A stretch of DNA of 49,393 nt from assembly GCA_025453505.1 (NCBI GenBank), contig JALOQG010000001.1, forward strand, positions 1 through 49,393, given 5' to 3'. The notes below the pieces were generated by a model, which saw nothing but the letters and a program-made list of their open reading frames with translations, was not told the origin of the DNA and did not search any database. The stretch's first letter is position 1. Every line of letters starts with the position of its first letter. Source of the DNA: Myxococcota bacterium. GTDB taxonomy: Bacteria > Myxococcota_A > UBA9160 > PR03. Below, in pieces: positions 2,295 through 34,896 of this stretch. Both the position numbers and the translations under genes were made by a program.

Positions 2295-2303
2295 GGGCCC
2301 CGT

Positions 2304-3871: not shown

Positions 3872-5877
<2,006 letters not shown>

Positions 5878-5919
5878 AGCTCGCCATACTAGAGCACCTC
5901 CACCAACGCTCCGAGTACG

Positions 5920-9148: not shown

Positions 9149-12100
9149 GTGCGGTCGCAGAGCGCTGCGGCGACGTCGCGTTCGGCGGCGAGGCCGAGCG
9201 CGGCGAATCCGTCGCGGGCGGCGGCGAGCAGGGCGACGGCGGAGTCGTTCGTTGCCGCGAGCCGGCGGCCCATCTCGAGCCGGGTGCGCGCGAGCTCGGG
9301 CCGCATGCCCAGCGATCCAGCGACGTCGAGACTCTCGTTCCAGCGTCGCTGGGCGGTGTCGTGGCGGCCGACGATCCATGCTTCCGTGCCTGCACTCCGC
9401 AACACCTCGGGCCGCCGCCACGCCACGCGCGTCGCGAGTCGCAGGGCGGCGCTCCGGCTGCGCGCGGCGTTGCGCCGCTCGCGGCGTCCCGCGCCGGGTT
9501 CCTCGAGACGCGCGACGTCGAGGATCTGTCGCGCACGCAGCAAGTCGCAGGCGTGGTACGGCAGCAGGCGCCCGGCTCCCTGCAGCCGCTGCTCGCCGCG
9601 CGCGAGGCTCGCACGTGCACCCTCGGCGTCGCCGGCCAGCCACTGCGCCACCGCGCGGTGTCCGAGCGCCGAGACCTGGAACGCAGGCTCGGCGTGCTCG
9701 TCGAGATACTCGTCGAGCGCGGCGATCGCGCCGCCGAGATCCCGGCGTTCGAGCCGCGTCATCGCGACCAGGAATCGCTGCGCAGACGCCGCGAGGTCGT
9801 AGCGATACTGGTCGGCGATCTTCGCGAGCCGCTCGGCGCAGGTCGCGGCGGCGTCCCAATCGCCGCGGTAGAGGCGGCGCAGGCCGTCGAGGTTGAGCGA
9901 GTTGGTCACCTCCCAGAGGCGGCCGTAGCGGAGCCCGTCCTCGAGCAGCGCTTCGTCGGCGACGTGGGCGTCGCTCCAATGCCCGGCCAGCACGTGGTGG
10001 AGCTGGCTCATCATCCGGTAGTGGACGCGATCGCGGACGTCGTCGTCGCGCACGAGCCGGCGCGCGCGCGCGAGGAAGCGCCGCCCGATCGCGAACGACA
10101 CGCCGCCGTACGAGAAGATCCCGACCGCGCCCGCATACATCGCGCCGGCGCCCGGAACCGTCGAAGGATCGACACGCCCGAGTCGCGCGAGCGTCGCGAC
10201 CGAATCGAACACGAAGCGCGTCGGCGACGCGGTCGTCTGCGTCTGCGCGCGCTCGTACATGATCGCGATGATCTCGCGGTCCACGTCGCGTGCCGGTCGC
10301 GCGGCCATGCGCCCGGGCGACACGAGCTGCGCGAGCACCGCGAGGGCGTCGCGCGCGAACGCCGCGACCAGGCGCCCGTTGCTGCGCGGCACCCGCACGC
10401 CGAGATGTTCGAGCGCCTGCTGGTAGTGCTCGTCCGCCTCGAGCAGGCGCCCGCGGTGGAAGAGTGCGAGCGCGACGTGATGCGCGAGGCGCGCCTTCCT
10501 GGCGGGGTCGCCGCCCGCGCCGTGTCGCGCGAGGTAGAGCTTCGAAGCCTCCTGGAAGAAGTGGAGCGCCTCGCTCGACGCCGCGACGCGCGCGGCGTCC
10601 TCGCCGGCGCGGAACAGGAACTCCTCGGCGCGCGTGGCGTCGCCGCCCTTTCCGTAGTGCCACGCCAACATGCCCGCGCGGCCGGGCACGGTATCGGGGA
10701 GGCGTTCCTCGATCGCCCTCGCCACCGAACGGTGGAGCTCCTCGCGCCGCGTCTCGAGCAGTCCGTCGTAGACGACCTCGTGCAGGAGCGGATGCGCGAA
10801 CGCCCACTCGACGCCGCTGCTGCGATCCCACGGCACGAGGAACTCGGCCTCCGCGAGGCGGAGCAGGTCCTCGGCGACACGCGTCGCTTCGCCGAGCACG
10901 CCGACGAGCACGGCTTCGTGGAAGCTGCGTCCGATCACCGACGCGAGCTGGAGCAGGCTGCGCCGCTGCGCCGGCAGCCGGTCCACGCGCGCCATCACTA
11001 CGCCGTGCAGCGTGTCCGGGATCGTGACCTCGTGGATGCGGTCGGTGGCGCGGAAGCGGCCGTCCGGATCGTGCTCGACGGCGCCTGCGTCGACGAGCGC
11101 GCGCACGACCTCCTCGAGGAAGAACGGATTGCCCTGCGCCCGGTCCTCGATCGTCGCGCGCGTGGCGTGCGGCAGCGCATCGGTCGCGAACAGGTTCGCG
11201 AGCAGCTCGCGCGCCGCGCCGCGCGGCAGCGGCTCGAGACGCACCACCAGCAGATCGACGCCGGCGGCGCGCGCCGATGCTTCCGCGCGGTCCGCCGTCG
11301 CCGTGTGACCGGGCCGCGCGACGAACGCGAAGAGGATCGCGTGCTCGCGCGCGAGCGGCAGCAACGCCGCGAGCAGCTCGATCGACGACTCGTCGGCCCA
11401 GTGCAGGTCGTCCATCACGAAGACGACGGGCCGGTCGCTCGCGGCGCCGCGCAGCAGCTGGCCGATCGTGCGGTGCAGCAGCTTCTCGCGCGCATCGCCC
11501 GCGATGCGTTCGATGCGCGCGCGCTGCGGGGCATCGAGGCGCAGGCCGACGAGGTTGGCGAGCAGTGGCGCTGCATCCTGCGCTTCGCCGGGCAGCCAGC
11601 GGCCGGCGAGCGCGTCGAGCTTCGCGCGCGCCGCGCCCTCGTCGTCGGCGTCGCCGATGCCCGCCCAGCCGCGCAGCAGGTCTGCGAAAGGGTGGAAGCG
11701 CAGGCTGCGGCCGGTCGAGAGCGAGCGTCCCTCGAGCCACGTGAGCGACGCCGCCTCGGGGCTCGCGGCCAGCTCCGCGACGAGCCGCGACTTGCCGAGT
11801 CCCGCTTCGGCTTGCAGCGCGACGGCGCCGCCGTGACCGCCGGCGAGTGCGACGAGCCGCTCGCGCAGCGTCGCGAGTTCGCTGCCGCGGCCGACCAGCG
11901 GCGAGAACACGCGGCGTCCGCGGCCGGCGCGCTCCCGGTGCCGCTGCACGCGATCGGAGCGCAGCTCGAACGCGGCGATGGGCGCGTCGTGTCCGGCGAG
12001 CGTGAGCGGGGCGAGCGGCGCGAACTCGAAGACGCCGCGCACGAGCCGCTCGGTGTCGGCGCCGACGAAGATCTGTCCGGCCTCGGCCCAGTCGGTGAGC

Positions 12101-13848
12101 TGCGAGGCGACGTCGACGGGATCGCCCATCACGGCGAACTCGCGCAGCAGCGGACCGCTGACGTCGCCGGCGATGCCGAGCCCGGTGTGGATGCCCGCGT
12201 GCACGGAGAGCGGCGGCTCGATGCCCCGCTCGGCGTTGTAGGCGCGCACCCGCTCGCGCATCTCGATCGCCGCGTTGATCGCAGCGCGCGGCGCGTCCTC
12301 GATCGCCTCGGGCACGCCGAAGGTCGCCATCACGCAGTCGCCGAGATGCTTCTCGACGTGCCCGCCGTGATCGCGTGCGATGCCGTCGAGCAGATCGAGA
12401 CAGCCGGCGACGACCGGGTAGGCCGCCTCCGCGCCGAGCCGCTCGGTCATCGCGGTGAAGCCGCTGATGTCGGCGAACAGGATCGTCGCGCGACGCCGTT
12501 CGGCGTCGGCAGAGCGGGCGGCGCGATCGGCCTGCGCGCGTTCGGTCGCGAGCGCCGGCGCGAGGTGGACGCCGAGCACGAGACGTCCCGGGTGATCGCC
12601 GGCCCGTTCGAGGAGCAGCGCGCGCGCGTCCGGTGCGAGCGCGGCGTCCGGTGCGAGTGCGTCGACCAGACGCTCGGCGTCGGCTCGGCCCAGTCGGCCG
12701 AGCCGGATCTCGCGGCAGCATTCGCCGAGCGCGCGCGCGCACACGGCCAACGGCGCGTCGCTCGTCTCGGCCGTCACGACGAAGAGCAGCGGGCACTGCG
12801 TCGCGAGCGCGAGCGCCGGCGCCAGCGCGGCGAACGATTCCGGGTCGAGTCGCTCGACGTCCTCGATCACGACGAGGAGCGGCCGGGCCCGGGCGGACGC
12901 GGAGAGAGCGGTCGCCACGGCGGCGGACAGCGAGGCGGGATCCGTCGTGTCGATCGAAGCGCCGCCGAGCGCCGCGACGAGATCACGGGCGGCGCTTCCG
13001 CGCGCGGCGTCCTCGGAGGCCGGATGCAGGACGACGACCGCGATGCCGGCCAGCGCGGGCTCGGTGGCGAGATCCGCGAGCAGCCGCGAACGCCCCGAAC
13101 CGTCTTCGCCGAGCAGCGCGATCGCTCCGCCGCGGCCGCCGGCGAGCGCACCGATCGCATCGGCGAGCGCCGCGCGTTCGGCGTCGCGGCCGATCAGGCG
13201 CGCGGCGGGCGGATCCTCCGGCGCGAGTGTGCGTACCGCGCGCGAGCCGCGTACGCCGATCAGCTCCGCCGCTGCGACCGTCCGCGATTTGCCCTCGAGC
13301 GCGAGCGCCTCGAGCGGCGTCCAAGCGAAGCGGTCGCCGGCCTCGCGCACGCTCGCCGCGTCCCCGCGGATCGCGTCGAGACGGGCGCGCGCCTTGAGGC
13401 GCGCCGCGACATTGACGGTGTCGCCGAGCACGTGGAACTCGCGAACGACGCGGCCGCCGACGTCGCCCGCGACGATCGCGCCGGTCGCGATGCCCCCCTG
13501 GAGCGCGAGACGCACCGGGAGCCCGAGCGCGCGGTCGTAGGCGCGCACCTGCCGGCGCATGTCGAGGACCGCCTCCGCCGCGGCGCGCGCCGGACGCGCG
13601 AGCGGTGCGGGATGTCCGAACACGACCATCAGGCTGTCGCCCTGGTACTTGTCGACCGCGCCGCCGTGGCGGCGCGCGATCGCATCGAGCAGACGCAGAC
13701 AGCCCGTCACCGCGAGGTACGCGCGCTCCGGGCCGACGGATTGCGACAACGCCGTGAAGCCCGCGACGCCGACGAAGACGATCGTGGCGTCGACCCGGCG
13801 TGCCGCCGGCGGCTCGGGTCGGTGGCCGTCGCGTGCGGGGACATCCAT
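9145..13848 (-). CDS. Multidomain signalling protein: class III cyclase domain 1, degenerate P-loop NTPase, class III cyclase domain 2, STAND/AAA ATPase, helical/TPR-like C-terminal region
   Basis: 1567 aa. CHD1 spans about aa 20-195 (IVFVGVAGFT, KYQGDSLMVVFG, GDTVNVAARL). NTPase-like 1 has GEDGSGRSRL. CHD2 spans about aa 452-630 (ILFADISGFT, KHLGDCVMATFG, GDPVDVASQL). NTPase 2 has Walker A AEAGLGKSRL and Walker B VVFVMDDLHWAD. A helical region of about 650 aa follows. Confidence 0.9.
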   Translation of the reverse strand: MDVPARDGHRPEPPAARRVDATIVFVGVAGFTALSQSVGPERAYLAVTGCLRLLDAIARRHGGAVDKYQGDSLMVVFGHPAPLARPARAAAEAVLDMRRQVRAYDRALGLPVRLALQGGIATGAIVAGDVGGRVVREFHVLGDTVNVAARLKARARLDAIRGDAASVREAGDRFAWTPLEALALEGKSRTVAAAELIGVRGSRAVRTLAPEDPPAARLIGRDAERAALADAIGALAGGRGGAIALLGEDGSGRSRLLADLATEPALAGIAVVVLHPASEDAARGSAARDLVAALGGASIDTTDPASLSAAVATALSASARARPLLVVIEDVERLDPESFAALAPALALATQCPLLFVVTAETSDAPLAVCARALGECCREIRLGRLGRADAERLVDALAPDAALAPDARALLLERAGDHPGRLVLGVHLAPALATERAQADRAARSADAERRRATILFADISGFTAMTERLGAEAAYPVVAGCLDLLDGIARDHGGHVEKHLGDCVMATFGVPEAIEDAPRAAINAAIEMRERVRAYNAERGIEPPLSVHAGIHTGLGIAGDVSGPLLREFAVMGDPVDVASQLTDWAEAGQIFVGADTERLVRGVFEFAPLAPLTLAGHDAPIAAFELRSDRVQRHRERAGRGRRVFSPLVGRGSELATLRERLVALAGGHGGAVALQAEAGLGKSRLVAELAASPEAASLTWLEGRSLSTGRSLRFHPFADLLRGWAGIGDADDEGAARAKLDALAGRWLPGEAQDAAPLLANLVGLRLDAPQRARIERIAGDAREKLLHRTIGQLLRGAASDRPVVFVMDDLHWADESSIELLAALLPLAREHAILFAFVARPGHTATADRAEASARAAGVDLLVVRLEPLPRGAARELLANLFATDALPHATRATIEDRAQGNPFFLEEVVRALVDAGAVEHDPDGRFRATDRIHEVTIPDTLHGVVMARVDRLPAQRRSLLQLASVIGRSFHEAVLVGVLGEATRVAEDLLRLAEAEFLVPWDRSSGVEWAFAHPLLHEVVYDGLLETRREELHRSVARAIEERLPDTVPGRAGMLAWHYGKGGDATRAEEFLFRAGEDAARVAASSEALHFFQEASKLYLARHGAGGDPARKARLAHHVALALFHRGRLLEADEHYQQALEHLGVRVPRSNGRLVAAFARDALAVLAQLVSPGRMAARPARDVDREIIAIMYERAQTQTTASPTRFVFDSVATLARLGRVDPSTVPGAGAMYAGAVGIFSYGGVSFAIGRRFLARARRLVRDDDVRDRVHYRMMSQLHHVLAGHWSDAHVADEALLEDGLRYGRLWEVTNSLNLDGLRRLYRGDWDAAATCAERLAKIADQYRYDLAASAQRFLVAMTRLERRDLGGAIAALDEYLDEHAEPAFQVSALGHRAVAQWLAGDAEGARASLARGEQRLQGAGRLLPYHACDLLRARQILDVARLEEPGAGRRERRNAARSRSAALRLATRVAWRRPEVLRSAGTEAWIVGRHDTAQRRWNESLDVAGSLGMRPELARTRLEMGRRLAATNDSAVALLAAARDGFAALGLAAERDVAAALCDRT

Positions 13849-14021
13849 GCGCGCGACAGGATATCGGCGTGAGACGGTGTCGCCGCGGCGGGTCGGCCCT
13901 GCAGCATGCGACGGGCGCGGATCGCGCGAGGCGTGCTAGTCGTTGCCGCCGCCGACCGGAGCCGCGTCGCACTCCGCGGCTCCCTCTCGGCTCCGGCCAT
14001 CCGCAACAGGAGAGGGCGCGC

Positions 14022-14849
14022 GTGCAGACCTTCGTCCTTCCCGGCTACCGCTCCCTGCGTCGCGTGGCGATCGGGCTGCTCTGTGCCGCAGCGCTCGGGG
14101 GCGCGTTCGCGCCCGAGGCGCGCGCGCAGGCGTCCGCCGAGGACGTCGAGCGCTGTCTGCGCCAGAACCTGCCGAAGCGGTCGAGCGTCCAGACGATGCG
14201 CTTCGACACGCGCGATCGCATGGGCAACACGCGCCGCATCGAGGGGAAGATCTTCTGGCGGCGCGGCGAGAGCGACGCGCACTCGAAGACGCTGGTCCGC
14301 ATCGAGGCCCCGCCCGAGCTGCGCGGATCGTCCTATCTGCTGCTCGAGAAGCCCGACGTGCTCGACATCTTCGTCTACCTGCCCGAGTTCCAGAAGGTGC
14401 GCCGCATCACGCCGCACGCGCTCGCGGGCTCGCTCTTCGGCACCGACTTCTCGTACGAGGACATGATGCGCCTGCGCCACGTCTTCGAGCGCCAGCGCGC
14501 CGAACGCCTCGCCGACGAGCGCGTCGGCGAGCGCGACGCGTTCGTCGTACAGCTCGTGCCGCCGCCGGAGTCGGGTTCGGCGTACGAGCGCGTCAAGGCG
14601 TGGGTCGATCAGAAGAGCTGCGTGCCGCTGCGCATGGAGTTCGTCGCGAAGGGCGGCTCGCTCGCCAAGGAACTCACCTCGGATCCCGCGACGTTTTCGC
14701 AGCGCGGCTCGATCTGGGTGGCGAGCGCCTTCGTGCTGCGCGACCTGCACGAGCAGACCGAGACCGCGCTCGAGCTCGGCGAGATCGAGGCGGACGTCGA
14801 CCTGCCCGACCGGCTCTTCAGCGAGCGGGCGCTCGCCCAGGGCAACTGA
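14022..14849 (+). CDS. Periplasmic LolA-like outer membrane lipoprotein-sorting family protein
   Basis: GTG at 14022 follows AGGAGAG (14008-14014). Signal peptide is RRVAIGLLCAAALGGAFAPEARAQ. The body (LLLEKPDVLDIFVYLPEFQKVRRI...GTDFSYEDM) resembles the LolA_like family that is usually encoded next to MMPL/RND exporters. Confidence 0.8.
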   Translation: MQTFVLPGYRSLRRVAIGLLCAAALGGAFAPEARAQASAEDVERCLRQNLPKRSSVQTMRFDTRDRMGNTRRIEGKIFWRRGESDAHSKTLVRIEAPPELRGSSYLLLEKPDVLDIFVYLPEFQKVRRITPHALAGSLFGTDFSYEDMMRLRHVFERQRAERLADERVGERDAFVVQLVPPPESGSAYERVKAWVDQKSCVPLRMEFVAKGGSLAKELTSDPATFSQRGSIWVASAFVLRDLHEQTETALELGEIEADVDLPDRLFSERALAQGN

Positions 14850-17485
14850 TTCGGCTGCTGGCGGGCATCGCGTCGCGACCGGGCCGGGTGCTCGCCGTCG
14901 CCGCGCTGGTCACGGCGGGCGCGCTCGCCGGGCTCGTCGATCTGCGCACCGGCGCGGTGCGGCTGAGCGTCGATCCCTCGGCCGTGCACCTGCTCCCCGC
15001 CACCGGCCCGGAGCGCGATCAATACGAGCGCGCCCGCCAGCTCTTCGGCGCCGAGGAGCCGTTCGTCGTCGCGCTCGCGGCCGACGACGTGTTCCGTCCC
15101 GACGTCCTGCGCCGCGTCGCGACGCTGAGTGCGGAGCTCGCGGCGCTGCCCGAGATCCACCACGTCGTGTCGCTCGCGACGGCGCCCGACGTGATCGCGA
15201 GCGAGAACGGCGACATCGAGCTGCGTCCGATCCTCGACGCGATTCCCGAGCGTCCCGAGGAGCTCGCGGCGCTGCGCGCGCGCACGCTCGGCAATCCGCT
15301 CTACCGCGGCACGCTGGTCGCCGACGACGCTCGCACCGTGGCGCTCTTCGCGTACCCGGATCGGCTCTCGTCGCGCGATCTGCTGGCCAGCGGCGTCGCC
15401 GATCGCGTCGAGGTCGCCGCGCGCGCGCACGCCGGAGCCGGCGTCGAGGTGTTCGTCAGCGGCATTCCGTTCGCGACCGCGAAGCTCTCCGACCTGCTGC
15501 TGCGCGAGCTGCGCACGCTGTTGCCGCTCACCGTGCTCGTGCTCTGCGTCGTGCTCGCCTTCGCGTTCCGATCGGTGCTCGGCGTCGTGCTGCCGATCAC
15601 GTCGGTGTCGCTCGCGCTCGTGTGGACGCTCGGCGTGATGGCCTGGACGGGCCGCTCGCTGAACCTCGTGACGGCGATCCTGCCTCCGCTCGTCGTCACG
15701 GTCGGCCTCGCGTACGCGATGCACGTCGTCGCGGATTTCGGCGCGCGGCTCGCCGAAATTCCCCGCGATCGCGCGGGGCGCATGCAGCTCGCCGGCGAAG
15801 TGGTCGGCGAGATCGGCGTCTCGGTGCTGCTGGCGGGCATGACCACGCTCGCGGGCTTCCTCTCGCTCGCGCTCTCGCCGATCGCGGCGATCCGCGAGCT
15901 CGCGCTCTTCGCGGTGCTCGGCGTCGCGTTCGCGGTCGTGTCGGCGATCACGGTCACGCCCGCGCTGCTCGCGGTACTGCCCGGCACCCCGGTGCGCGCG
16001 CCGCGCGGCGGCGATTGGCTGGGACGCAAGGCCGGCTCGCTCGCGGACTTCGCGGTGCGCCGCCGCGCTCTCATCGTGTCGGTGGCGGCCCTCGCGGTCG
16101 CTTTCGGTGCGTGGGGCGCACGCCGCATCGAGACGGCGACCGAGTTCGTCGGCAACCTCGATCGCAGCACGCAGATGCGCGCCGACTACGAGGCGATCAA
16201 CGCGCGGCTCGGCGGCGCCAACCTGATCCAGATCGCGATCGATTCGCCGCTGGAGCAGGCGTTTCTCGAGCCGGCGAACCTGCGCGTGCTCACCGAGCTG
16301 ACGCAATGGCTCGGCGCGCAACCGGAGATCGGCGGCGCGGTGTCGCTGGCCGACTACGTGGCGCTGGTGAATCACGCCATGTCGGACGGCGATCCCGCGG
16401 CGCTGCGTGTGCCCGACACGAAGCGCGCCGTCGGTCAGCTCCTGCTCTTCGGCGCCAGCGACGAGACCGAACGCCTGACCGACGCGCGCTATCAGACCGC
16501 GAACGTCGTGGTGCGTGCCAGCGTCGGCGACTCACGCGGCGTGGCGGCGCTGGTCGATTGCATCGAGACGCGGCTCGCCGCGCTGCCCGAGCCCCTGCAC
16601 GCGACGGTGACGGGCAACGTCGTGCTCTTCGGCAAGAGCCTCGACGACCTCGCCGGCGGCCAGTGGGCGAGCCTCGGCGCCGCCTTCCTGATGATCTACG
16701 CGTGTCTCGCCGCGCTCTTCACCTCGCTCCTCGTCGGTTCGATCGCGCTCGGCATCGCCGCCGACGACACGATCCACACCATGGCGCGCTTCAACACCGA
16801 GGCGCGCCGGCTCGGCGACGAGCGGCGCGCGATCGACGCGGCCCTGCGCGGCGTGATCCGGCCGATCACGTTCACGCTCGTGGGACTCTGCCTCGGCTTC
16901 TCGGTGCTCGGATTCTCCGAGCTGCGTTCGCAAGCGGAGTTCGGCCTGCTCGCGGCCGCGACGCTGGCGGTCGGCTGGGTGGTGGACATGACGCTGACGC
17001 CGGCGCTCTGCGCGGGCGTGCGCGTGGTGACGCTGTGGGACGTGCTGACGCTCGATCTCGGCGCCGATCCCGCGCGCGAGATCCCGCTCTTCGCCGGCAT
17101 GAGCCGCCAGCAGATGCGGATCTTCGTGCTGCTCGCGTCGCCGCGTACGCTCGCCGCCGGCGAGCTGCTCTTCCGCGAGGGCGATCCGGCGCGGCACGGA
17201 TACCTGGTCCTGGAAGGACGCCTCGAGACGTCGGTGGACCGCGACGGCGAACGCATCGTGCTCGAGCCGATCGAACGCGGGGACACCACGGGCGAGATCG
17301 GCCTTTTCGCGATGCGGCGCAGCGCCGACGTGCGCGCGCTCGCGCCGACGCGGCTGGTGCGCTTCGACGGCGAAGATCTCGAGCGGCTGCGGCTCCGCTC
17401 GCCGCGCACCGCCGCGCTGCTGTATCGCAACCTGAACCGGATCCAGTCCGAGCGCCAGCTCGTGACCAGCGTCCGGGTGCGCTGA
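14846..17485 (+). CDS. MMPL/RND-superfamily exporter (COG1033-type) fused to a C-terminal cyclic-nucleotide-binding domain
   Basis: Two-lobed RND layout. The first bundle has FRSVLGVVLPITSVSLALVWTLGVMAWTGRSLNLVTAILPPLVVTVGLAYAMH and the second has IALGIAADDTIH. The C-terminus (about 17078-17470) has a CAP-type cNMP domain (LFAGMS..., GEIGLFAMRRSADVRA). The start is uncertain: no ATG/GTG/TTG precedes the conserved N-terminus. Candidates are CTG at 14846 (overlapping the upstream TGA) or GTG at 14888. Confidence 0.85.
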   Translation: MIRLLAGIASRPGRVLAVAALVTAGALAGLVDLRTGAVRLSVDPSAVHLLPATGPERDQYERARQLFGAEEPFVVALAADDVFRPDVLRRVATLSAELAALPEIHHVVSLATAPDVIASENGDIELRPILDAIPERPEELAALRARTLGNPLYRGTLVADDARTVALFAYPDRLSSRDLLASGVADRVEVAARAHAGAGVEVFVSGIPFATAKLSDLLLRELRTLLPLTVLVLCVVLAFAFRSVLGVVLPITSVSLALVWTLGVMAWTGRSLNLVTAILPPLVVTVGLAYAMHVVADFGARLAEIPRDRAGRMQLAGEVVGEIGVSVLLAGMTTLAGFLSLALSPIAAIRELALFAVLGVAFAVVSAITVTPALLAVLPGTPVRAPRGGDWLGRKAGSLADFAVRRRALIVSVAALAVAFGAWGARRIETATEFVGNLDRSTQMRADYEAINARLGGANLIQIAIDSPLEQAFLEPANLRVLTELTQWLGAQPEIGGAVSLADYVALVNHAMSDGDPAALRVPDTKRAVGQLLLFGASDETERLTDARYQTANVVVRASVGDSRGVAALVDCIETRLAALPEPLHATVTGNVVLFGKSLDDLAGGQWASLGAAFLMIYACLAALFTSLLVGSIALGIAADDTIHTMARFNTEARRLGDERRAIDAALRGVIRPITFTLVGLCLGFSVLGFSELRSQAEFGLLAAATLAVGWVVDMTLTPALCAGVRVVTLWDVLTLDLGADPAREIPLFAGMSRQQMRIFVLLASPRTLAAGELLFREGDPARHGYLVLEGRLETSVDRDGERIVLEPIERGDTTGEIGLFAMRRSADVRALAPTRLVRFDGEDLERLRLRSPRTAALLYRNLNRIQSERQLVTSVRVR

Positions 17486-17486
17486 G

Positions 17487-20400
17487 ATGGCGCGACTCGT
17501 CGACGTGCGCGCCGACGAGCGCGAGCGCTTCGGCTGGTTCGCCGCGCTGGCGGCGCTGCTCGCGTTCGGACAGATGCTGGGCCAGGCCGGCACCGAGTCG
17601 CTCTTCCTCGCGCGGCTCGGTGCGGAACGCCTGCCCGAGGCGTTCGTATTCGCGTCGATCTCGACGGTGGCGGCGTCGCTCCTCTACGCGATGCGCGTCG
17701 GGCACGCGCGCAACGACCGCGTCGCCGTCGAGCTGCTGGGGCTCGCCGTCGTCGCGATCGGCGCCGGCGCCTTCGCGCTGCGGCAGGGCTCGGAGATCGC
17801 GCTCGTCGCGCTCTTCTGTCTCTTCTTCGCGACGCAGGCGGTGCTGATCGGTCACTTCTGGACGCTGCTCGGCGACTTCTTCGACACGCTGGCGGCCAAG
17901 CGCGTGGTGCCCCTCTGTACCGTGGGACTCTCGTTCGGCGGCGCCCTCGGCGGCGGAGCGGCGCTCGGCGTCGTGTCGACGTTGCCGGCGGAGATGTTGC
18001 TGGTCGGCTGGGCGCTGGGTCTCGTGGCCGCGGCGGTGCTGGTCGCGACCTCGCACGGCCGGCTCGCGCGGTGGCGCGCCGTCTCGCAGGGCGAGGAGGA
18101 CGAGACGTCGGTCGAGGGGCTGCGCGCCGCCGTGCGCTACCTGCGCGGCTCGCGGCTCGGCCGCCGGCTCTTCGTATCGGCGCTGACGATGGTGCTCGCG
18201 CTCTTCGTCGCGCAGTACCTCTACTCCGCGCGGATCGCGGCGGCGTTTCCGGACGAAGCGGAGCTGGCGCGCTTTCTCGCGATCTACCTGATGGTGAGCA
18301 ACGCCGTCGAGATCGGGGTCGAACTCTTTGTGACGCCTTTCGCCATCCGGCGCCTCGGCGTTCCCGCGGCGAACCTGATCCAGCCGCTCGCGACGCTCGC
18401 GACCTTCGTCGGACTCGGCTTCGCGCCGGGGCTGCCGGTGGCGGTGCTGGCGCGCGCCAACCGCGAGCTGCTGGACAACGCGCTCGCCGCGCCCGTGCGC
18501 ACGCTCGCGGCGAACGCGCTGCCCGATCGCTTCCGCGCCCGCGTGCGCGCCTTCCTCGAAGGCATCGTGGTGTATGCGGGCATGTCGCTCGCCGGCGTCG
18601 TCCTGCTGCTCGCGCGCGATCTCCCCGCCGAATCGCTGGTGCTCGCCGGTGCGGCGCTCGCCGGGCTGCATTTCCTCGCGAATCTCGGCGTGCGACGGCA
18701 GTACGTCGCGGCGATCGTCGGCGAGCTGCGGGCCGGTCGCTTCGACTGGCACGCGCTCGGCGACGAGATCGGCGCGCACGAGGTCGAGTCGCTGGCCGCG
18801 CTCTGGGAGCGCCTGGTCCGCGAGACGCCCGGCGATCCGGGACCCGCGCTGCTCGATCTGCCTCCGCTGCTCGTGCGCCACGGTCTCACGGCGCCGGTCC
18901 GCACGGCACTCGGACATCCGAGCCCGGCGCTGCGCGCGGCGTGTCTCGCGGCGCTCGCGGCTGCGCCCGAGGCGCAGGCGGATCCGGCGTTCTGGTTGCG
19001 CGTACTCGGCGACTCCGACGCAGACGTGCGTCGCGCGGCGCTGCGCCTGCTGCCCGACGCGCTGCTGGCCGGACCCGAGGTCCACGGCGCGCTGCGCGCG
19101 CTGCGCGACGACGCGGACCCGCGCGTGCGCGCCGCCGCCGCGCGCCGCCTCGGCGCCGAGGGCGAGCCGCTCTTCGCCGCGTTGCTGGCGTCGCCGGACA
19201 CCGGGAACGTCGCAGCGGCGCTCGAGTCGCTGCCGCCGGCGCTCGCCGGTGCGGCGGTCGCGCGGCTCGCGGATCCGGATGCGCGCCTGCGCGCGGCGGC
19301 GCTCGACGCGCTCGCGCGCGGTGGCGCGGAAGCGTCGCTCCAACCGCTCGCGACCTCGCGCCTCGCCGATCCGGACGCGCGCGTGCGGCGCGCGGCGGTT
19401 CGCGCCGTGGCCGGTACGGGTGCAGACGCGGCGGCGATCGCGCCGGCGCTTCGCGACCCCGCCCGCGAGGTGCGCAGCGAAGCGGTGCGCGCACTGGTGG
19501 AGCAGGGGGATCGCGGCGCCGTCGCGGCGCGTCCCTTGCTCGACGCGGGCGAGGAGTTCGCGGTGGGCGCGGCGTTGCGCGTGCTCGGCGCGGTGGGCTC
19601 GCCGTGGGCGGTCGCTTCGTTGCGCGAGCACTACGCGGCGCGCGTGCGCGAGGCCGTGCAGGCGTTCCTGTGCGCTCGCGTGTTCGCGACGACCGACGGC
19701 GTGCCCGTCTTCGTCGCGGCGGCCGGCAGCGACGCCCTCGCGCGCGCGCTGCGTCTCGCATGGCGTTCGCTGGCGCGGATCGAGGACGAGCGCGTCGTGC
19801 GCAGTGCCGAGCGTTCGCTGCGCGGCGCCACCGGCCGCATGCGCGCGGACGCGCTCGAAGTGCTCTCGCAGCTCGGAGACCGCGAGGCCTCGCAGCGCCT
19901 CGTGCTGCTGCTCGAGCCGATGCCCGTCGAAGAGAAGATCGAGGCGCTGCGTTCGTGGGGGCGTGTGCCGCGCGATGCGGCCGAAGCCATGACGCATGCC
20001 GCGGCGCTGTCGTCACCATGGATCCGGCTCGCGGTGCGCCGCCGGACGGATGCCGAGGAGATCCAGATGGAACGCCTGCTCTCGCTGCGCCAGGTCTCGT
20101 TGTTCGCGCACATGAGCCTCGAACGCCTGCACGCGGTCGAGCGCATCCTGCGCGACGCCGAGTACGTGCAGGGCGAGGTGATCCTGCGCGAACACGAGCC
20201 CGGCGACGACCTGTACCTGCTGGTCGAAGGCCACGTCGACGTGCTGCGCGGCGCGGGCACGCCGGGCGAGATGCTGCTCAACCGGCTCGGGCCGGGCGCC
20301 TACTTCGGCGAGATGGCCGTCCTCGACGGCACGCCGCGCAGCGCGACGATCGTCGCGGCGGGACCGGTGCGCGTGCTGGTGCTCGAAGGGGAGCGCCTGC

Positions 20401-20504
20401 GCGAACTCGTGCACGAGATGCCCGAGCTGGCGTTCGATCTGCTGCGCGTGCTGGCGGAGCGGGTGCGGAGGGCGGAGGAGCGGCTGGCGGCCGGGGAGTC
20501 GTGA
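17487..20504 (+). CDS. TLC/ATP-ADP-translocase-like MFS-type permease fused to HEAT repeats and a C-terminal cyclic-nucleotide-binding domain
   Basis: 1005 aa; the ATG is 1 nt after the upstream stop. The N-terminal polytopic domain has HFWTLLGDFFDTLAAKRVVPLCTVGLSFGGALGG (TLC-family FW...AKR motif). The central part has repeated ADPDARVRRAA-type HEAT units. The C-terminal CNB domain has LFAHMS..., FGEMAVLDGTPRSATIVA. Confidence 0.85.
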   Translation: MARLVDVRADERERFGWFAALAALLAFGQMLGQAGTESLFLARLGAERLPEAFVFASISTVAASLLYAMRVGHARNDRVAVELLGLAVVAIGAGAFALRQGSEIALVALFCLFFATQAVLIGHFWTLLGDFFDTLAAKRVVPLCTVGLSFGGALGGGAALGVVSTLPAEMLLVGWALGLVAAAVLVATSHGRLARWRAVSQGEEDETSVEGLRAAVRYLRGSRLGRRLFVSALTMVLALFVAQYLYSARIAAAFPDEAELARFLAIYLMVSNAVEIGVELFVTPFAIRRLGVPAANLIQPLATLATFVGLGFAPGLPVAVLARANRELLDNALAAPVRTLAANALPDRFRARVRAFLEGIVVYAGMSLAGVVLLLARDLPAESLVLAGAALAGLHFLANLGVRRQYVAAIVGELRAGRFDWHALGDEIGAHEVESLAALWERLVRETPGDPGPALLDLPPLLVRHGLTAPVRTALGHPSPALRAACLAALAAAPEAQADPAFWLRVLGDSDADVRRAALRLLPDALLAGPEVHGALRALRDDADPRVRAAAARRLGAEGEPLFAALLASPDTGNVAAALESLPPALAGAAVARLADPDARLRAAALDALARGGAEASLQPLATSRLADPDARVRRAAVRAVAGTGADAAAIAPALRDPAREVRSEAVRALVEQGDRGAVAARPLLDAGEEFAVGAALRVLGAVGSPWAVASLREHYAARVREAVQAFLCARVFATTDGVPVFVAAAGSDALARALRLAWRSLARIEDERVVRSAERSLRGATGRMRADALEVLSQLGDREASQRLVLLLEPMPVEEKIEALRSWGRVPRDAAEAMTHAAALSSPWIRLAVRRRTDAEEIQMERLLSLRQVSLFAHMSLERLHAVERILRDAEYVQGEVILREHEPGDDLYLLVEGHVDVLRGAGTPGEMLLNRLGPGAYFGEMAVLDGTPRSATIVAAGPVRVLVLEGERLRELVHEMPELAFDLLRVLAERVRRAEERLAAGES

Positions 20505-29301: not shown

Positions 29302-29330
29302 AATCGAACCCGAACCACCCGGAGCACCTC

Positions 29331-30458
29331 ATGGCCGACCACATCACCCACGACGCCATCTACGACGCGGTCGATCGCGACGACTTCGACGCGATGATCG
29401 AAGTCGATCGCTACGCGCGCCGCACGGGCGCCTTCGACGAGATCATCTCCGCGACGGAGGACCACTTCTGGGATCCGCTCGATCCCACCTACGTGGACTT
29501 CACGCAGCCCTTCGACCTCCGCGAAGACACCATCATGCCGCGCGACTTCACGATCGAGCTCAACTGCGCCGTCGCGGACAAGCTCGACGAGGGCCAGCAG
29601 ATCGCGCTCGCCAACGAGGTCACGCGCTTCAGCGTCTCGCAGCTGCTGCACGGCGAGCAGGGCGCGCTGTCGCTCTCAGCGAGCCTGTGCCACGTGCTCC
29701 ACGATCCGGGCGCGCAGGAGTACGCCGCCAACCAGGCGCGCGAAGAGGCGCGCCACGTGACGGCCTTCTCGAAGTACGTCGGCGCGCGCTGGGGCACGCC
29801 GCTGCCCGCGGGCCAGACGCTCGGCGCGCTGATGAACGAACTGGTGCTCGCGCCCGAGGTCTACAAGAAGCTGGTCGGCATGCAGATGCTGATCGAGGGG
29901 CTCGCGATGGGCGCTTTCGCGACGCTGCACTCGCGCACGCGCGATCCCGTGCTGCGACGCACCGTGCAGCTCGTGATGACCGACGAGGCGTTCCATCACC
30001 GCTTCGGCCGCATCTGGGCCAAGCGCACCGTCCCCAAGCTCAGTGAAGAGGAACACATCAAGGTCGAGGACTGGGCCGCGCAGTGCTTCCACAAGGTGTT
30101 CATGAATCTCGTGAACGCCGAGCAGAAGCAGGCGATCTATCCGCAATTCGGACTCGACTGGAAGTACGTCCGCTCCGCCGTGATGGAGGCGTTCACCGAC
30201 GCGGATCGCCGCCGGATGATGAAGGAGAACACCAACATCTTCCGCGTGCTGATCAAGACGCTGCTGCACGGCGGCATCATCACCGACCGTACGAAGCACC
30301 TCTACGAGGCGTGGGTCGATCTCGGCGAGCTCGGCCGCGAGCCCGAAGGCGTGGTCGGCGACGCGGTCGCCGACGCGGCGATGGAAGAGCTGCGCGAGAT
30401 CAACCGCGGCAAGAAGAAGATCGGTCGCGCGTTCAAGGAGATGGCGACCGCGAACTAG
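29331..30458 (+). CDS. Ferritin-like di-iron carboxylate oxygenase (AurF-like family)
   Basis: 375 aa. Paired metal motifs LLHGEQGA ... AREEARH and MLIEGLA ... MTDEAFHH (E / ExxH twice). It lies 29 nt downstream of the TetR gene. Confidence 0.75.
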   Translation: MADHITHDAIYDAVDRDDFDAMIEVDRYARRTGAFDEIISATEDHFWDPLDPTYVDFTQPFDLREDTIMPRDFTIELNCAVADKLDEGQQIALANEVTRFSVSQLLHGEQGALSLSASLCHVLHDPGAQEYAANQAREEARHVTAFSKYVGARWGTPLPAGQTLGALMNELVLAPEVYKKLVGMQMLIEGLAMGAFATLHSRTRDPVLRRTVQLVMTDEAFHHRFGRIWAKRTVPKLSEEEHIKVEDWAAQCFHKVFMNLVNAEQKQAIYPQFGLDWKYVRSAVMEAFTDADRRRMMKENTNIFRVLIKTLLHGGIITDRTKHLYEAWVDLGELGREPEGVVGDAVADAAMEELREINRGKKKIGRAFKEMATAN

Positions 30459-31573: not shown

Positions 31574-32101
31574 TCACTTCGAGGGGGCGAGCAGGGCGTC
31601 GAGCGCGGGCCACTCGATCGAGGTCTGCGCCGCAAACGCGCGCAGCAGCAGCTCGCGGTCGGCGCGATCGGCGTCGCTGGCCTTCGCGCGGTACACCTCG
31701 ACGGCTGCGCCGAGTTTCGCGGCGGGCGGCTCGACCGGGGCCTCGTCGCCCTGCAGCGTGCCCTTGTCGTGCTCGAGGCCGAGACCGTCGAGCCATTCGG
31801 TCAGCAGCTCGTTGCGACACTCGAGGAAGTAGACGGCCAGCATTTCCTCGGCGATCGGATCCGCCACCACGCGTCCGAGCGACTTGCGCACCAGCTCTGC
31901 GCGCCGCTCCACGGGCTGGCGCTGCAGGAACACGGGCCGCGCCTTGAGCGCGCCGGCCGTGGCGCCGAGCGCCTGTGCATACGCGATCGGCGCCTTTTCC
32001 TTGAGCGCCTCGAGCAGCGTGCGGGCGTGTTCGGGCGCCATCGCCCCGAAGATCTGATGAGGTCGCATGGCGCCGCTGTCTAGCAGACGCGCCGGGGTCA
32101 T
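31574..32101 (-). CDS. Hypothetical protein (175 aa), translationally coupled to the CtaA-NDH-2 gene
   Basis: The ATG at 32101-32099 overlaps the upstream stop (ATGA). Non-repetitive, balanced composition (MTPARLLDSGAMRPHQIFGAMAPEHARTLLEALKEKAP...). I recognise no family. Confidence 0.65.
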   Translation of the reverse strand: MTPARLLDSGAMRPHQIFGAMAPEHARTLLEALKEKAPIAYAQALGATAGALKARPVFLQRQPVERRAELVRKSLGRVVADPIAEEMLAVYFLECRNELLTEWLDGLGLEHDKGTLQGDEAPVEPPAAKLGAAVEVYRAKASDADRADRELLLRAFAAQTSIEWPALDALLAPSK

Positions 32102-34323
32102 GCCGCGTCGCTGGCGCGCGGCTCCGCGGTCCCGCTGGAGGCCGGGGCCGACGCCGCGCGCCGCCCTCCGATGATCGAGCGCAGCCCGAGGTCGTAGCTG
32201 AAGTAGTGGTAGATCCAGTTGACGAAGACGACGGCGCGATTGCGGAAGCCGGCGAGGAACAGGATGTGGACGACGAGCCAGAGCAGCCACGCGAGACGCC
32301 CCGCGATGCGCACGCCGAAGACCTGCGCGACCGCGCGATCGCGCCCGATCGTCGCCATCGCGCCGAGATCGCGATACGCGAACGGCAGCGGCGGCGCACC
32401 GCAGAGCGCGCGCTGCACGTTGCCTGCGACGCGCTGGCCTTGCTGGATCGCGACCTGTGCGACCTGCGGGAGCGTCTCCATCCCGCGCACCAGCGCGAGG
32501 TCTCCGATCGCGTACACACCGGGCGCGCCGGCCACCTCCAGCGTCGGCAGGGCCGGAACGCGTCCGCCGCGTCCGAGCGGAACGCCGAGCGCCGCGCCGA
32601 TCGGTGCGCCGCGGATGCCGGCCGCCCACACCACCGTGCGCGCGCGCAACGCCTCGCGCGAGGAGAAGCGCACGCCGTCCCCGTCGACGCGTTCCACCAG
32701 CGTGGACAGCCGCACCTCGACGCCGAGTTCGCGGATCTGTTCGAGCGCGCGGCGGCAGAGATCTTCGGGAAAGGCGGCCAGCAGGCGATCGCGGCCCTCG
32801 ACGAGCACGACCCGCATCGACGCCTCGAGGCCGGGGAAGTCGCGCGGCACGACGTGGCGACGCAGCTCCGCGAGCATGCCGGCCAGCTCGACGCCGGTCG
32901 GTCCGCCGCCGACCAGCACGAAGCCGAGCAGCGCCTCGCGCTCGTTCGCGTCGTCCGTCTGCGACGCGCGTTCGAGGCAGCGCAGGACGTGGTTGCGCAG
33001 CTCGATCGCGTCTTCGACGTGGCGCAGCCCGAACGCCAGCCGTTCGACGCTCGCGTTGCCGAAGTACTCGGTGGCGCTGCCGCCCGCGAGCACGAGCACG
33101 TCCCAGGGCAGGTGCTCTCCGTCGGCCGTTTCGATGCGACGCGCCGTCGTGTCGATCGCCACGACTTCGCCGAGCCGGAAGCGGGCGTTCGGGATCGGCC
33201 GCAGGATCGATCGCACCGGATGCGTCACGTCCTGCGCCGAGAGGCCCGAGGTCGCGACCTGATAGAGCAGGGGCAGGAACGTGTGGTAGTTCTCGCGATC
33301 CACGATCTGCACGTCGACGGCCGTGTCGGCGAGTGCGCGCGCGACCGCCAGACCGCCGAAGCCCGCCCCGACCACGACGACCCGCTGCCGGGGACCGTCC
33401 GTTCCCACCGGACGCCGGATCGCCTCGCGCAGCGCGGCCGCCAGCGAGAGTGCGATGCACGCCGCGACGCCCGTGTGCAGCGCGGTCACCGCCACGTGGA
33501 GATCGAGCGCGACGTTCGCGACGCCCACGGCGACCTGCGCGAGCGTCAGCGCGCACGCGAGCCGCAGCGGTCGCGCGACGCCCGGATGGCGCCGGTTCCA
33601 CGCGAACGCCACGAGCATCGCGACGACGACGAGATACGCGTTGGTGCGATGCACGAGATGCAGACCCACGCCGCCCTGCAGCGAGGGGAACCACACACCA
33701 TCGCGACACGTCGGCCAGTCGGGGCAGTCGAGCCCCGCGTAGTGCGCCGAGACGAGGCCACCCAGCCCGATCTGCAGCACGAGCAAGAGCAGCGCCGCGA
33801 CGAGCGAGCGGCGCGCGCGGGTCGGCAGGGCAGGGCGCGGGCGCGGCGCCGCGGTCTCGCGCACGGCCGCGCGCGTCCAGAGCAGCGCGGCGGCGAACGA
33901 GGTGCCGGTCAGGAGATGGGCGGTCACCGTCCAGGGCGCGAGCCCGAGCAGCACCGTCAGCCCGCCGAGCACGATCTGCACCGCGAGCAGCGCCGCGGCG
34001 ATCGCGAGCGGCCCGCCCGCCGCGCGTCGCAGGACGGGATCGCGCAGGACTGCGACTCCGAGTCCGACGAAGAGCAGGGAGATCGATCCCGCCATCACGC
34101 GATGCGCCCACTCGAAGCCGATGCGCAGATCGAGCACCGGGACCCAGACGCCGAAACAACGCGGCCAATCGGGGCAAGCGAGGCCGGCGCCGTGCGCGCG
34201 AACCAGGGCGCCGAGCACGATCAGGCCGAGCGTCAGCGCGACCAGCGCCGAGAGCGACCGCGCGACGCGCCTCACGCGACTCGCATGGGCGAGCGGATCG
34301 CGGCTCGAAGCGGGATCACGCAT
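32098..34323 (-). CDS. Fusion protein: heme A synthase (COX15/CtaA) membrane domain + type II NADH dehydrogenase (NDH-2) flavoprotein
   Basis: 741 aa from the ATG at 34323. The N-terminal half has CtaA hallmarks: GAGLACPDWPRC, EWAHRV, TAHLL, a second copy HYAGLDCPDWPTC, LVHRTNAY and ALHTG. From about aa 345 there is RVVVVGAGFGGL, a second Rossmann LVGGGPTGVE, GDLA, and a C-terminal amphipathic/hydrophobic anchor. No in-frame stop separates the two halves. Confidence 0.85.
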   Translation of the reverse strand: MRDPASSRDPLAHASRVRRVARSLSALVALTLGLIVLGALVRAHGAGLACPDWPRCFGVWVPVLDLRIGFEWAHRVMAGSISLLFVGLGVAVLRDPVLRRAAGGPLAIAAALLAVQIVLGGLTVLLGLAPWTVTAHLLTGTSFAAALLWTRAAVRETAAPRPRPALPTRARRSLVAALLLLVLQIGLGGLVSAHYAGLDCPDWPTCRDGVWFPSLQGGVGLHLVHRTNAYLVVVAMLVAFAWNRRHPGVARPLRLACALTLAQVAVGVANVALDLHVAVTALHTGVAACIALSLAAALREAIRRPVGTDGPRQRVVVVGAGFGGLAVARALADTAVDVQIVDRENYHTFLPLLYQVATSGLSAQDVTHPVRSILRPIPNARFRLGEVVAIDTTARRIETADGEHLPWDVLVLAGGSATEYFGNASVERLAFGLRHVEDAIELRNHVLRCLERASQTDDANEREALLGFVLVGGGPTGVELAGMLAELRRHVVPRDFPGLEASMRVVLVEGRDRLLAAFPEDLCRRALEQIRELGVEVRLSTLVERVDGDGVRFSSREALRARTVVWAAGIRGAPIGAALGVPLGRGGRVPALPTLEVAGAPGVYAIGDLALVRGMETLPQVAQVAIQQGQRVAGNVQRALCGAPPLPFAYRDLGAMATIGRDRAVAQVFGVRIAGRLAWLLWLVVHILFLAGFRNRAVVFVNWIYHYFSYDLGLRSIIGGRRAASAPASSGTAEPRASDAA

Positions 34324-34479
34324 CGGGGCTCCAGGGGGACGGGCGGCCTTCTCCGGCCGCAGCCACCCCGACCGTAGAGGATGGCAACGGCACTGCAATG
34401 CGCGGGCGCGGAGCAGGTCGTAGTCTCGCGACGCGCGTTGCTTCAGCGCGGCGCATGTTCCGTCGATACGACAGGCGTG

Positions 34480-34896
34480 ATGAACACGATGCCGCATCAA
34501 GGATCCGACGATCCCCGCAAGCTGCGCGAGGTTCTCGCGCGCACCCAGACGCTCGCCTCCGAGCACGCCGTGGCTTCGGTCGTGGTGGGCTTTGCCGCGC
34601 GCGAGGGCAGCCTGCTCTTCCCGGACTTCCTCGCGTATCTCGAGAGCGAGCTGCGCGTCGAGGATCAGATCTTTCGGCTCACCCGCGAGCGCGCGCTGCT
34701 GATCCTGCGCGACGTCGAGGTGCGGCAGGCGGAGTCCGTGGTGGAGCGACTGCGCGCCAACTTCGAGCGCGAGTTTCCGTCGTCGCGCGGCGTGGACGTC
34801 TCGATCCGCTACCTCGCCGTGCCGCCGGGTCCGGTGTCGATCAGCGTGAAGAGCGTGCTGCCGGCCGTCTTCGGCGGAGCCGCCGAACCCGACTGA
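34480..34896 (+). CDS. Hypothetical protein (138 aa), possibly a degenerate GGDEF-like domain
   Basis: ATG at 34480. VVVGFAAREGSL ... RVEDQIFRLTRERALLILRDVEVRQAESVVERLRANF aligns by eye to the GGDEF core, with RERAL in place of GGDEF. Weak. Confidence 0.5.
   Translation: MNTMPHQGSDDPRKLREVLARTQTLASEHAVASVVVGFAAREGSLLFPDFLAYLESELRVEDQIFRLTRERALLILRDVEVRQAESVVERLRANFEREFPSSRGVDVSIRYLAVPPGPVSISVKSVLPAVFGGAAEPD

Follow-up and report, generated by a model that had tools for sequence, protein, structure and literature searches.

A heme A synthase fused in frame to a type II NADH dehydrogenase in an uncultured Myxococcota lineage

Heme A synthase has been found joined to other proteins of its pathway. 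In Schizosaccharomyces pombe, Etp1 is a fusion of the synthase Cox15 with a ferredoxin (PMC11408685), and in Halobacteria and some bacteria the synthase CtaA is fused to CtaB. Yeast Cox15 depends on ferredoxin (Yah1/Arh1) (PMC7140478), and the electron donor of bacterial CtaA has been stated to be undetermined (bioRxiv 10.1101/2020.03.01.968255). Both statements agree with the premises of a first-pass annotation of the DNA studied here, which was made from the letters alone. This DNA is a stretch of 49,393 nucleotides from a Myxococcota bacterium (contig JALOQG010000001.1 of assembly GCA_025453505.1), hereafter called the window. One of its genes encodes a CtaA that continues in frame into a type II NADH:quinone oxidoreductase (NDH-2), and it lies between two genes that we call 'small' and 'up'. 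We describe this ctaA-ndh fusion and its relatives, and weigh the tentative reading that the NDH-2 domain provides CtaA with reductant in the form of quinol.

The window protein resembles Etp1 in that a heme A synthase is fused at its C-terminus to a redox protein, which in Etp1 belongs to the pathway thought to feed the synthase. The partners differ: Etp1 carries a soluble [2Fe-2S] ferredoxin, whereas the window protein has no ferredoxin and carries a flavoprotein of a type that normally reduces membrane quinone. The ferredoxin of Etp1 is cleaved off, and the S. pombe fusion has been part of the argument for the mitochondrial partnership, in which ferredoxin and ferredoxin reductase serve the synthase. 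The CtaA-CtaB fusions also join CtaA to another enzyme of the same pathway, but there the partner is the preceding biosynthetic enzyme, as in substrate channelling, and not a redox enzyme (PMC9145763, PMC12808453). Reviews and surveys of heme A synthases mention only CtaA-CtaB fusions, and one survey removed "fusion proteins" (PMC9145763, PMC12808453). Our full-text searches found no report of a CtaA-NDH-2 fusion. Such proteins are already public under generic names, and the architecture itself seems to be undescribed.

Each half can also be compared with proteins of known structure. Bacillus subtilis CtaA (type 1B, or class B; PDB 6A2J and 6IED) has, like the fusion, eight transmembrane (TM) helices arranged as two four-helix halves with both termini inside, Cys pairs in both outer loops, ExxHR in TM2 and a His in each of TM4, TM6 and TM8. 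It is just ~25-30% identical to the fusion, which bears an extra C-terminal NDH-2 of 430 amino acids (aa) and is encoded away from ctaB and ctaCDEF. The NDH-2s of mycobacteria (Ndh, 9MQY), Caldalkalibacillus thermarum (4NWZ) and Staphylococcus aureus (5NA1) share with the window NDH-2 the two Rossmann domains, a Glu after the second GxGxxG, the AQxAxQ motif and the C-terminal amphipathic helices, with Foldseek TM-scores of 0.84-0.89 (normalised to the target). Unlike them, the window NDH-2 has its N-terminus joined to a polytopic heme enzyme and falls in a subclade whose genes are usually transcribed together with ctaA.

Architecture and conservation of the fusion protein

The first-pass annotation had described an in-frame CtaA/NDH-2 fusion, and its coordinates and content proved correct: the gene is a single open reading frame (ORF) that covers three Pfam domains (Table 1). 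Its 741 codons contain no stop and encode one polypeptide. The mechanical ORF reaches farther upstream, to a GTG at 34566. We place the start at the ATG at 34323, in agreement with the N-termini of homologues and with the database protein P0001 (741 aa, 100% identity), which NCBI lists as "MAG: COX15/CtaA family protein [Myxococcota bacterium]" and JGI as "NADH dehydrogenase". A Pfam search, which had been suggested as a check of both domains, matched COX15-CtaA (PF02628) at aa 25-292 (E 4.3e-42, 144.7 bits for a cut-off of 29.9, profile positions 5-319 of 322), Pyr_redox_2 (PF07992) at aa 314-629 (E 1.8e-44), with Pyr_redox at E 3e-16, and NDH2_C (PF22366) at aa 653-707 (32.2 bits for a cut-off of 27.7). 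The matches of both halves are far above chance and above the family thresholds. All the motifs named in the earlier reading were located: CPDWPRC, CPDWPTC, EWAHR, TAHLL, LVHRTNAY, ALHTG, GAGFGG and GGGPTG. The window has a G+C content of ~72%, and G+C at third codon positions (GC3) is high and uniform along the ORF.

The CtaA half looks like a complete type 1B heme A synthase with intact catalytic residues, judging from its alignments. This type is defined by two Cys pairs in the outer loops L1 and L5 (PMC12808453). We aligned 27 fusion proteins (61-87% identity), and C50, C56, E71, H74, H136, C200, C206, H225 and H283 are invariant in 27/27. The Glu and the His residues lie in the motifs EWAHR (E71 and H74), TAHLL (H136), LVHRTNAY (H225) and ALHTG (H283). 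In a phmmer match to B. subtilis CtaA (6A2J, E 1e-9), residues C35, C42, E57, H60, H123, C191, C197 and H216 aligned to those of the fusion. Three of the four His and the Glu could thus be aligned directly, and H283 (H278 in B. subtilis) was assigned by its position in TM8.

A protein of this kind could have ceased to make heme A and become a cytochrome-b-type anchor, or partner, of a specialised NADH oxidoreductase. The lack of ctaB or cox genes nearby would fit such a change of role, as would the company of 'small' and 'up', neither of which has an assigned function. However, the ExxHR Glu and His, the three other His and both Cys pairs are all invariant, the sequence is typical of type 1B, and the orthologues from loci that lack ndh resemble ordinary CtaA and are annotated as such. 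We give this repurposing a very slim chance.

The NDH-2 half also looks complete, with conserved catalytic residues and an amphipathic anchor of its own; the earlier reading had called it complete on account of both Rossmann GxGxxG motifs and the C-terminal membrane-anchoring helices, and all of these are present. Across an alignment of 90 fused and free sequences, G319, A320, G321, F322 and G324 of the motif for flavin adenine dinucleotide (FAD) are invariant and G323 nearly so. The same holds for G472, G473, G474, T476 and G477 of the NADH motif, followed by E479 and E509, with P475 nearly invariant. E479 aligns with E172 of S. aureus, and E509, which is acidic and located where the second strand ends, presumably reflects a preference for NADH. 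A622, A625, Q627 and G629 are invariant in fused and free NDH-2 alike, and from what is known of NDH-2 structures we take aa 622-629 to be the AQxAxQ quinone motif. Many residues of the C-terminal amphipathic helices are invariant as well.

We built an AlphaFold2 (AF2) model of the fusion on the 90-sequence alignment (predicted local distance difference test score, pLDDT, 87; predicted template modelling score, pTM, 0.87). It places the C-terminal helices at 676-690 and 696-709, near a hydrophobic peak at 673-701. The best solved relative in the sequence search is the mycobacterial NDH-2 9MQY (E 7.5e-83), which Foldseek also matched to the model (E 8e-33, TM-score 0.84 normalised to the target). 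Most fusion proteins close with Asp-Ala-Ala, preceded by a tail that varies and is poorly modelled; in locus L003 the free NDH-2 has a different ending.

Hydropathy and the positive-inside rule predict eight TM helices, an N- and a C-terminus in the cytoplasm and the two Cys loops on the outer side. The AF2 helices span 10-43, 66-94, 96-126, 132-158, 168-193, 217-242, 247-273 and 276-303, and the first Rossmann strand, beta-1, spans 313-318. About 18 residues lie between TM8 and this strand, and pLDDT exceeds 90 over aa 301-320. Given these helix positions and scores, the junction is short and confidently modelled. It is also the site at which the ctaA stop and the ndh start fall in unfused relatives: the two genes overlap by GTGA in L006 and lie 5 nt apart in L003. 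The pTM of the model and the pLDDT of the linker suggest a defined docking of the domains rather than beads on a string. The fusion is thus topologically sensible, as had been claimed: the CtaA half is predicted to have both ends inside and leads through a short linker into the Rossmann fold.

The second cytoplasmic loop of the CtaA half (aa 160-172) shows the pattern PRPRPALPTGxRRA. It is conserved in the main fused clade only, and not in the fusions P0050-52, in unfused ctaA-ndh loci or in the CtaAs of loci without ndh. The NDH-2 domain may dock on this loop.

Table 1. Coordinates of the fusion gene, its parts and nearby features in the window
Feature	Position	Strand	Basis or remark
ctaA-ndh fusion gene	32098..34323	-	741 aa + stop codon; continuous ORF, matches P0001
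Shine-Dalgarno-like GGAG	34329..34332	-	6-9 nt 5' of ATG 34323; read from the sequence
Predicted heme A synthase (CtaA, type 1B) domain, aa 1-305, 8 TM helices	33409..34323	-	PF02628, 6A2J match, hydropathy, AF2
Outer loop 1 Cys pair, C50-PDWPR-C56	34156..34176	-	invariant; aligns to B. subtilis C35/C42
Outer loop 3 Cys pair, C200-PDWPT-C206	33706..33726	-	invariant; aligns to B. subtilis C191/C197
Cytoplasmic loop 2, aa 160-172	33808-33846	-	conserved in main fused clade
Junction, TM8 end + short linker, aa 296-313 (...REAIRRPVGTDGPRQR), into Rossmann beta-1	33385..33438	-	no stop or frame change
Predicted type II NADH:quinone oxidoreductase (NDH-2) domain, aa 314-741	32101..33384	-	Pyr_redox_2, Pyr_redox, NDH2_C; 9MQY match
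FAD-binding GxGxxG, GAGFGG, aa 319-324	33352..33369	-	conservation in 90 NDH-2 sequences
NADH-binding GxGxxG, GGGPTG, aa 472-477, then E479 and E509	32893..32910	-	conservation
Presumed quinone-site motif PQVAQVAIQQG, aa 619-629	32437..32469	-	conservation; motif assigned from general knowledge of the family
C-terminal membrane-anchoring amphipathic helices, aa 653-707	32203..32367	-	PF22366, AF2, hydropathy
Terminal Asp-Ala-Ala	32101-32109	-	in most fusion proteins
'small' partner gene, 175 aa from ATGA overlap or 164 aa from M12 (32068)	31574..32101	-	directly downstream of ctaA/ndh
'up' gene, ~138-171 aa, weak degenerate GGDEF-like	34381..34896	+	divergent; in fused, unfused and ndh-less loci
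~375-aa ferritin-like di-iron protein	29328-30455	+	weak AurF, RNR-small and aldehyde-decarbonylase matches
Cyclic-nucleotide signalling cluster	9148-20501		includes the two following genes
MMPL/sterol-sensing-domain transporter fused to cNMP-binding domain	13943-17482	+
HEAT-repeat protein with cNMP-binding domain	17487-20501	+
Arf-like small GTPase beside Roadblock/LC7 protein	1707-2798	-	MglA/MglB-like pair

Distribution and origin of the fusion

Relatives with overlapping but unfused genes exist, so that one indel error could imitate a fusion, and an artefact at the junction had been a concern of the first-pass annotation. We therefore consider how often, and in which assemblies, the same layout occurs. 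A search of 5.8 billion proteins returned at least 50 clusters (90% identity) with PF02628 and PF07992 in one chain. Chain length is ~720-780 aa, and identity to the window protein 61-90%. NCBI, JGI, ENA and Logan assemblies, from independent projects and assemblers, all contribute. Long contigs bear the fusion, one of 1.59 Mb from ENA (L002) and another of 155 kb (L090, GCA_041611735.1), which are of long-read scale, and GC3 is uniform over the ORF. Given the number and independence of these homologous fusions, we rejected a sequencing or assembly error that merged two genes; the chance of it is negligible. The fusion that was to be sought in other genomes thus occurs beyond the window.

A second, exhaustive search covered 1.84 billion cluster representatives at 50% identity. 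There the CtaA-NDH-2 architecture forms a single cluster; no more divergent CtaA-NDH-2 fusion was found at this level, and the other long NDH-2 proteins bear DoxX or FTR1. Among GTDB genomes, one per species, the in-frame fusion is present in two species representatives, L005 (JANLTC01) and L032 (CAWDFQ01) only. L006 had appeared to be a third because of a misleading merged tblastn match; frame arithmetic and the sequence itself show a GTGA stop/start overlap, and hence an unfused pair. No cultured organism was returned by a search with the CtaA domain. The fusion is restricted to one uncultured Myxococcota lineage.

We checked the unfused relatives on their own contigs. Their free NDH-2 is 59-69% identical to the fused domain, and in six of them ctaA lies directly upstream of ndh, with 'small' downstream. 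The two genes overlap by 4 nt in L006 (GTGA), L085 and L086, and are separated by 5 nt in L003, 9 nt in the contig of P0081 and 50 nt in L089. L087 has only a ctaA fragment upstream of ndh; L004 is truncated by the beginning of its contig and has no 'small'. The linkage of ctaA and ndh thus extends beyond the fusion, to unfused pairs of the same NDH-2 clade. No adjacency to ctaA was found for NDH-2 genes of 53% identity or less, which come from many phyla, bar two cyanobacterial loci. Two candidates, L007 and L008, were discarded: their matches seemed to enter the CtaA C-terminus, and both are free-standing NDH-2 genes. In L085, a HAD-family hydrolase gene (5260-5907) lies on the opposite strand between ndh and 'small' and overlaps the end of the called ndh, whose call (476 aa) may be over-extended.

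Ten sister Myxococcota loci (L065, L067, L072, L073 on chromosome OZ245015.1, L075, L076, L078, L080, L082 and L083) carry ctaA (48-55% CtaA identity), 'up' and 'small', and neither the stretch between these genes nor its surroundings holds an ndh. The constant core of the module is up/ctaA/small, and ndh is optional in cis. A neighbor-joining (NJ) tree of the NDH-2 region places all ctaA-linked sequences in a single clade, with a monophyletic main fused group. The other, small group of fusions (P0050-52) has as its sister the unfused P0056 together with P0059, P0062 and P0063, which have escaped from ctaA. Fusions are found in two branches of this tree, at the same chromosomal locus, and the placement of fused and unfused forms implies that fusion or fission took place at least twice and escape once. 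In the CtaA NJ tree, rooted on cyanobacterial sequences, the fused clade branches as the sister of the rest, and the loci without ndh divide into two groups; this tree does not resolve whether ndh was gained or lost, and we claim neither. The fusion arose from an adjacent ctaA-ndh pair, often overlapping by 4 nt, within a conserved up/ctaA/(ndh)/small module.

The two cyanobacterial loci come from metagenome-assembled genomes (MAGs) and hold ndh, a ~125-aa ORF of no known family, ctaA, ctaB and an ABC-2 exporter (L035, 1676-6479, with the exporter downstream at 6567-8597; L040, 3709-9122, with the exporter at 9343-10368, where the ATPase gene alone was scanned). Their ndh lies 0.7-1.9 kb upstream of ctaA-ctaB on the same strand. 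This is an independent ndh-ctaA neighbourhood.

A possible electron supply to heme A synthesis

The reading that we put forward, and to which we give just short of an even chance, is that NADH would reduce quinone on the NDH-2 domain and that the resulting quinol would supply CtaA. The CtaA half would make heme A from heme O, at heme sites close to the outer face of the membrane. NADH would be oxidised on the cytoplasmic face by the NDH-2 half, which would pass the electrons through FAD to quinone at the conserved quinone site. Quinol made beside CtaA, and not the flavin directly, would then reduce heme b of CtaA for the activation of O2. The fusion, or the coupling of the genes, would fix a 1:1 stoichiometry and the proximity of the synthase and its source of reductant. 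Such a protein would be a tethered supplier and not an internal wire of the P450 BM3 type. In favour of this reading, the catalytic residues of both halves are invariant, and the fusion occurs in at least 50 clusters and in two branches of the tree. The unfused ctaA-ndh pairs without linked ctaB or cox genes, the two cyanobacterial loci, the docking suggested by AF2, the cytoplasmic loop of the main fused clade and the precedent of Etp1 also speak for it. Since the quinone site is conserved, quinone presumably remains the acceptor of NDH-2.

The first-pass annotation had proposed a closer coupling, a self-sufficient heme A synthase in which FADH2 would reduce heme b within the chain, directly or via residues. 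The model for this is P450 BM3, in which a single chain combines a heme oxygenase with an NAD(P)H flavoprotein reductase. The covalent attachment, the very short and confidently modelled linker and the analogy with the Cox15-ferredoxin protein Etp1 would favour such a wire. However, H74, H136, H225 and H283 are close to the outer ends of TM2, TM4, TM6 and TM8, at a distance of ~0-7 residues, and hydropathy and AF2 place these heme ligands ~20 helical residues from the cytoplasmic face that bears the flavin domain. With the height of the Rossmann domain added, the separation of the His and the flavin is by our estimate well beyond single-step tunnelling. Pfam detects no further redox cofactor motif between them, and a fully conserved quinone site would be needless for a direct wire. 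Because the His ligands are predicted at the outer face and the flavin domain in the cytoplasm, we infer that direct FAD-to-heme transfer is implausible. A self-sufficient enzyme, in the sense of a covalently attached direct donor, thus misfits the geometry, and we give it a slim chance. The likeness to P450 BM3 is a functional analogy only: in that protein flavins and heme share one side and are close enough for electron transfer, whereas those of the fusion are predicted on opposite membrane faces.

Several observations weigh against a supply through quinol. The first is again the position of the heme sites, which are predicted far from the cytoplasmic face, and no quinol site is known on CtaA. 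Secondly, the formyl oxygen of heme A comes from water, and radical or oxidase-like chemistry has been proposed (PMC9145763, PMC12777560), which makes the net need for an external reductant uncertain. Naphthoquinones reduced by NDH have also been proposed to inhibit Cox15 (PMC12777560), a lead that we do not use as evidence. Thirdly, NDH-2 is not obligatory in cis, as the ten sister loci do without it. Finally, the ndh gene of P0063 (L088) stands without ctaA, beside TetR and nitroreductase genes, though it is nested in the ctaA-linked clade; since it is encoded away from ctaA, an NDH-2 of this type can work alone.

The same group of NDH-2 has also been fused to other membrane proteins, which counts on the same side. 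Among NDH-2s of 690-740 aa (39-47% identity), nine of the ten long representatives tested have an N-terminal DoxX (P0267, P0277, P0280, P0291, P0308, P0320, P0353, P0270 and P0282) and one has FTR1 (P0302). Like the window protein, they begin with a polytopic domain of ~250-320 aa and continue into a complete NDH-2 with NDH2_C. Unlike it, their membrane domains are unrelated to CtaA, their NDH-2 is 39-47% identical and they belong to separate sequence clusters. A literature search on NDH-2 domain fusions, including DoxX-NDH-2, found nothing relevant. Since the same group also occurs behind DoxX and FTR1, fusion by itself says less about a specific redox partnership. Recurrent fusion behind polytopic proteins may reflect generic anchoring; alternatively, NDH-2 may be a portable membrane reductase module.

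We also considered that an ordinary respiratory ndh sits in the ctaA operon and is co-expressed and co-localised with the synthase, with no hand-off of electrons and with independent activities. On this account the overlapping stop was lost and the fusion was tolerated, the CtaA C-terminus being cytoplasmic and NDH-2 a peripheral membrane enzyme, or it brought a slight benefit through an additional membrane anchor or equal dosage. Given the 4-nt overlaps of unfused relatives, a single accidental step suffices for fusion. In the NDH-2 tree, fused and unfused sequences are intermixed, and the NDH-2 half keeps everything that autonomous function needs, its own anchor and quinone site included. 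The modules without ndh, the ndh outside the module, the DoxX and FTR1 proteins and the heme sites on the far side of the membrane point in the same direction. However, the linkage lasts to ~53% (CtaA) and 59% (NDH-2) identity, and the fusion has been kept across at least 50 clusters with a monophyletic main clade. Moreover, ctaA is linked to ndh yet not to ctaB or cox, and so the pairing is not simply a cluster of respiratory genes. The confident fixed arrangement of the domains in the AF2 model and the cytoplasmic CtaA loop conserved only in the main fused clade also argue against full independence. Mere co-expression is a real possibility, some way short of an even chance.

For the quinol supply that we put forward, the genomic evidence suggests, but does not compel, a specific redox partnership. 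Its stronger form, in which NDH-2 is the dedicated physiological supplier of reductant to a bacterial heme A synthase via locally made quinol, is doubtful.

Partner genes, neighbourhood and significance

The gene 'small' lies directly 3' of ctaA or ndh in every variant of the module, whether or not ndh is present, and is the most faithful companion of this CtaA. Its 412 homologues are all annotated as hypothetical, and neither Pfam nor NCBIfam has a match. AF2 gives an all-helical model (pLDDT 93) for which Foldseek found no match in the PDB (best E 3.6). Invariant residues among the homologues P0121-P0240 include C84, W92, H100 and W153. The protein may be an unrecognised factor of heme A synthesis or delivery. 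The first-pass annotation had it translationally coupled to the fusion gene, and the ATGA overlap at 32098-32101 is indeed present. However, most homologues start 11 codons later (32068 in the window), 20-80 nt behind the fusion gene; hence the coupling is not a conserved feature, and the conserved start is probably that at 32068. The divergent 'up' gene gave only sub-threshold matches (PelD_GGDEF, E 0.036; a diguanylate cyclase model, E 6e-4).

The flanks are syntenic in the window (L001), L002, L003, L085 and L090. The common order is citrate synthase, Aminotran_4, adh_short, often Bac_luciferase, Epimerase/DUF1731 and 'up', and then sometimes an ABC-2 exporter pair, ctaA(-ndh), 'small', adh_short and an AurF-like di-iron protein. 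The exporter pair (ABC_tran and ABC2_membrane) lies beside ctaA in L003 (5212-6974), L086 (1153-2933), L089 (1220-2970) and L090 (4203-5932) and is absent from the window. The gene of the di-iron protein is syntenic in fused genomes (L002, 14061-15194; L090, 10604-11731). It adjoins a short-chain dehydrogenase gene and a regulator gene, of the TetR type in the window and L090 and of the AraC type in L002.

We scanned the window with Pfam, taking the ORFs that pass a codon-composition filter or are called on the matching JGI contig. In agreement with the earlier statement that the window has no other cta or cox genes, no ctaB or cox gene was found in the 49 kb, outside excluded stretches at ~7.7-9.0 and 44.7-46.2 kb, nor in the flanks of the related Myxococcota loci. 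Elsewhere in the window, a signalling cluster includes a 1567-aa adenylate/guanylate cyclase with AAA_16 domains (minus strand) and two proteins with domains that bind cyclic nucleoside monophosphates (cNMP). The MglA/MglB-like pair is consistent with a Myxococcota origin.

If the two activities are merely co-expressed, the fusion would be a modest curiosity of one uncultured lineage. Two further elements seem to be undescribed: a ~160-aa family of novel predicted fold, 'small', that accompanies CtaA with or without NDH-2, and a group of NDH-2 that recurs behind polytopic proteins (DoxX, FTR1 and CtaA) and would cast NDH-2 as a portable module. If the stronger form of the reading that we put forward is true, quinol regenerated from NADH would be the electron donor of type 1 bacterial CtaA, and the 'small' protein would be suggested as a further component of heme A synthesis or delivery. 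NADH, probably via quinol, becomes a testable candidate for the reductant of bacterial heme A synthesis. The natural fusion and the conserved ctaA-ndh operon with its translational coupling offer a bacterial lead analogous to the mitochondrial Cox15-ferredoxin case, in the form of a construct that can be tested as a single polypeptide.

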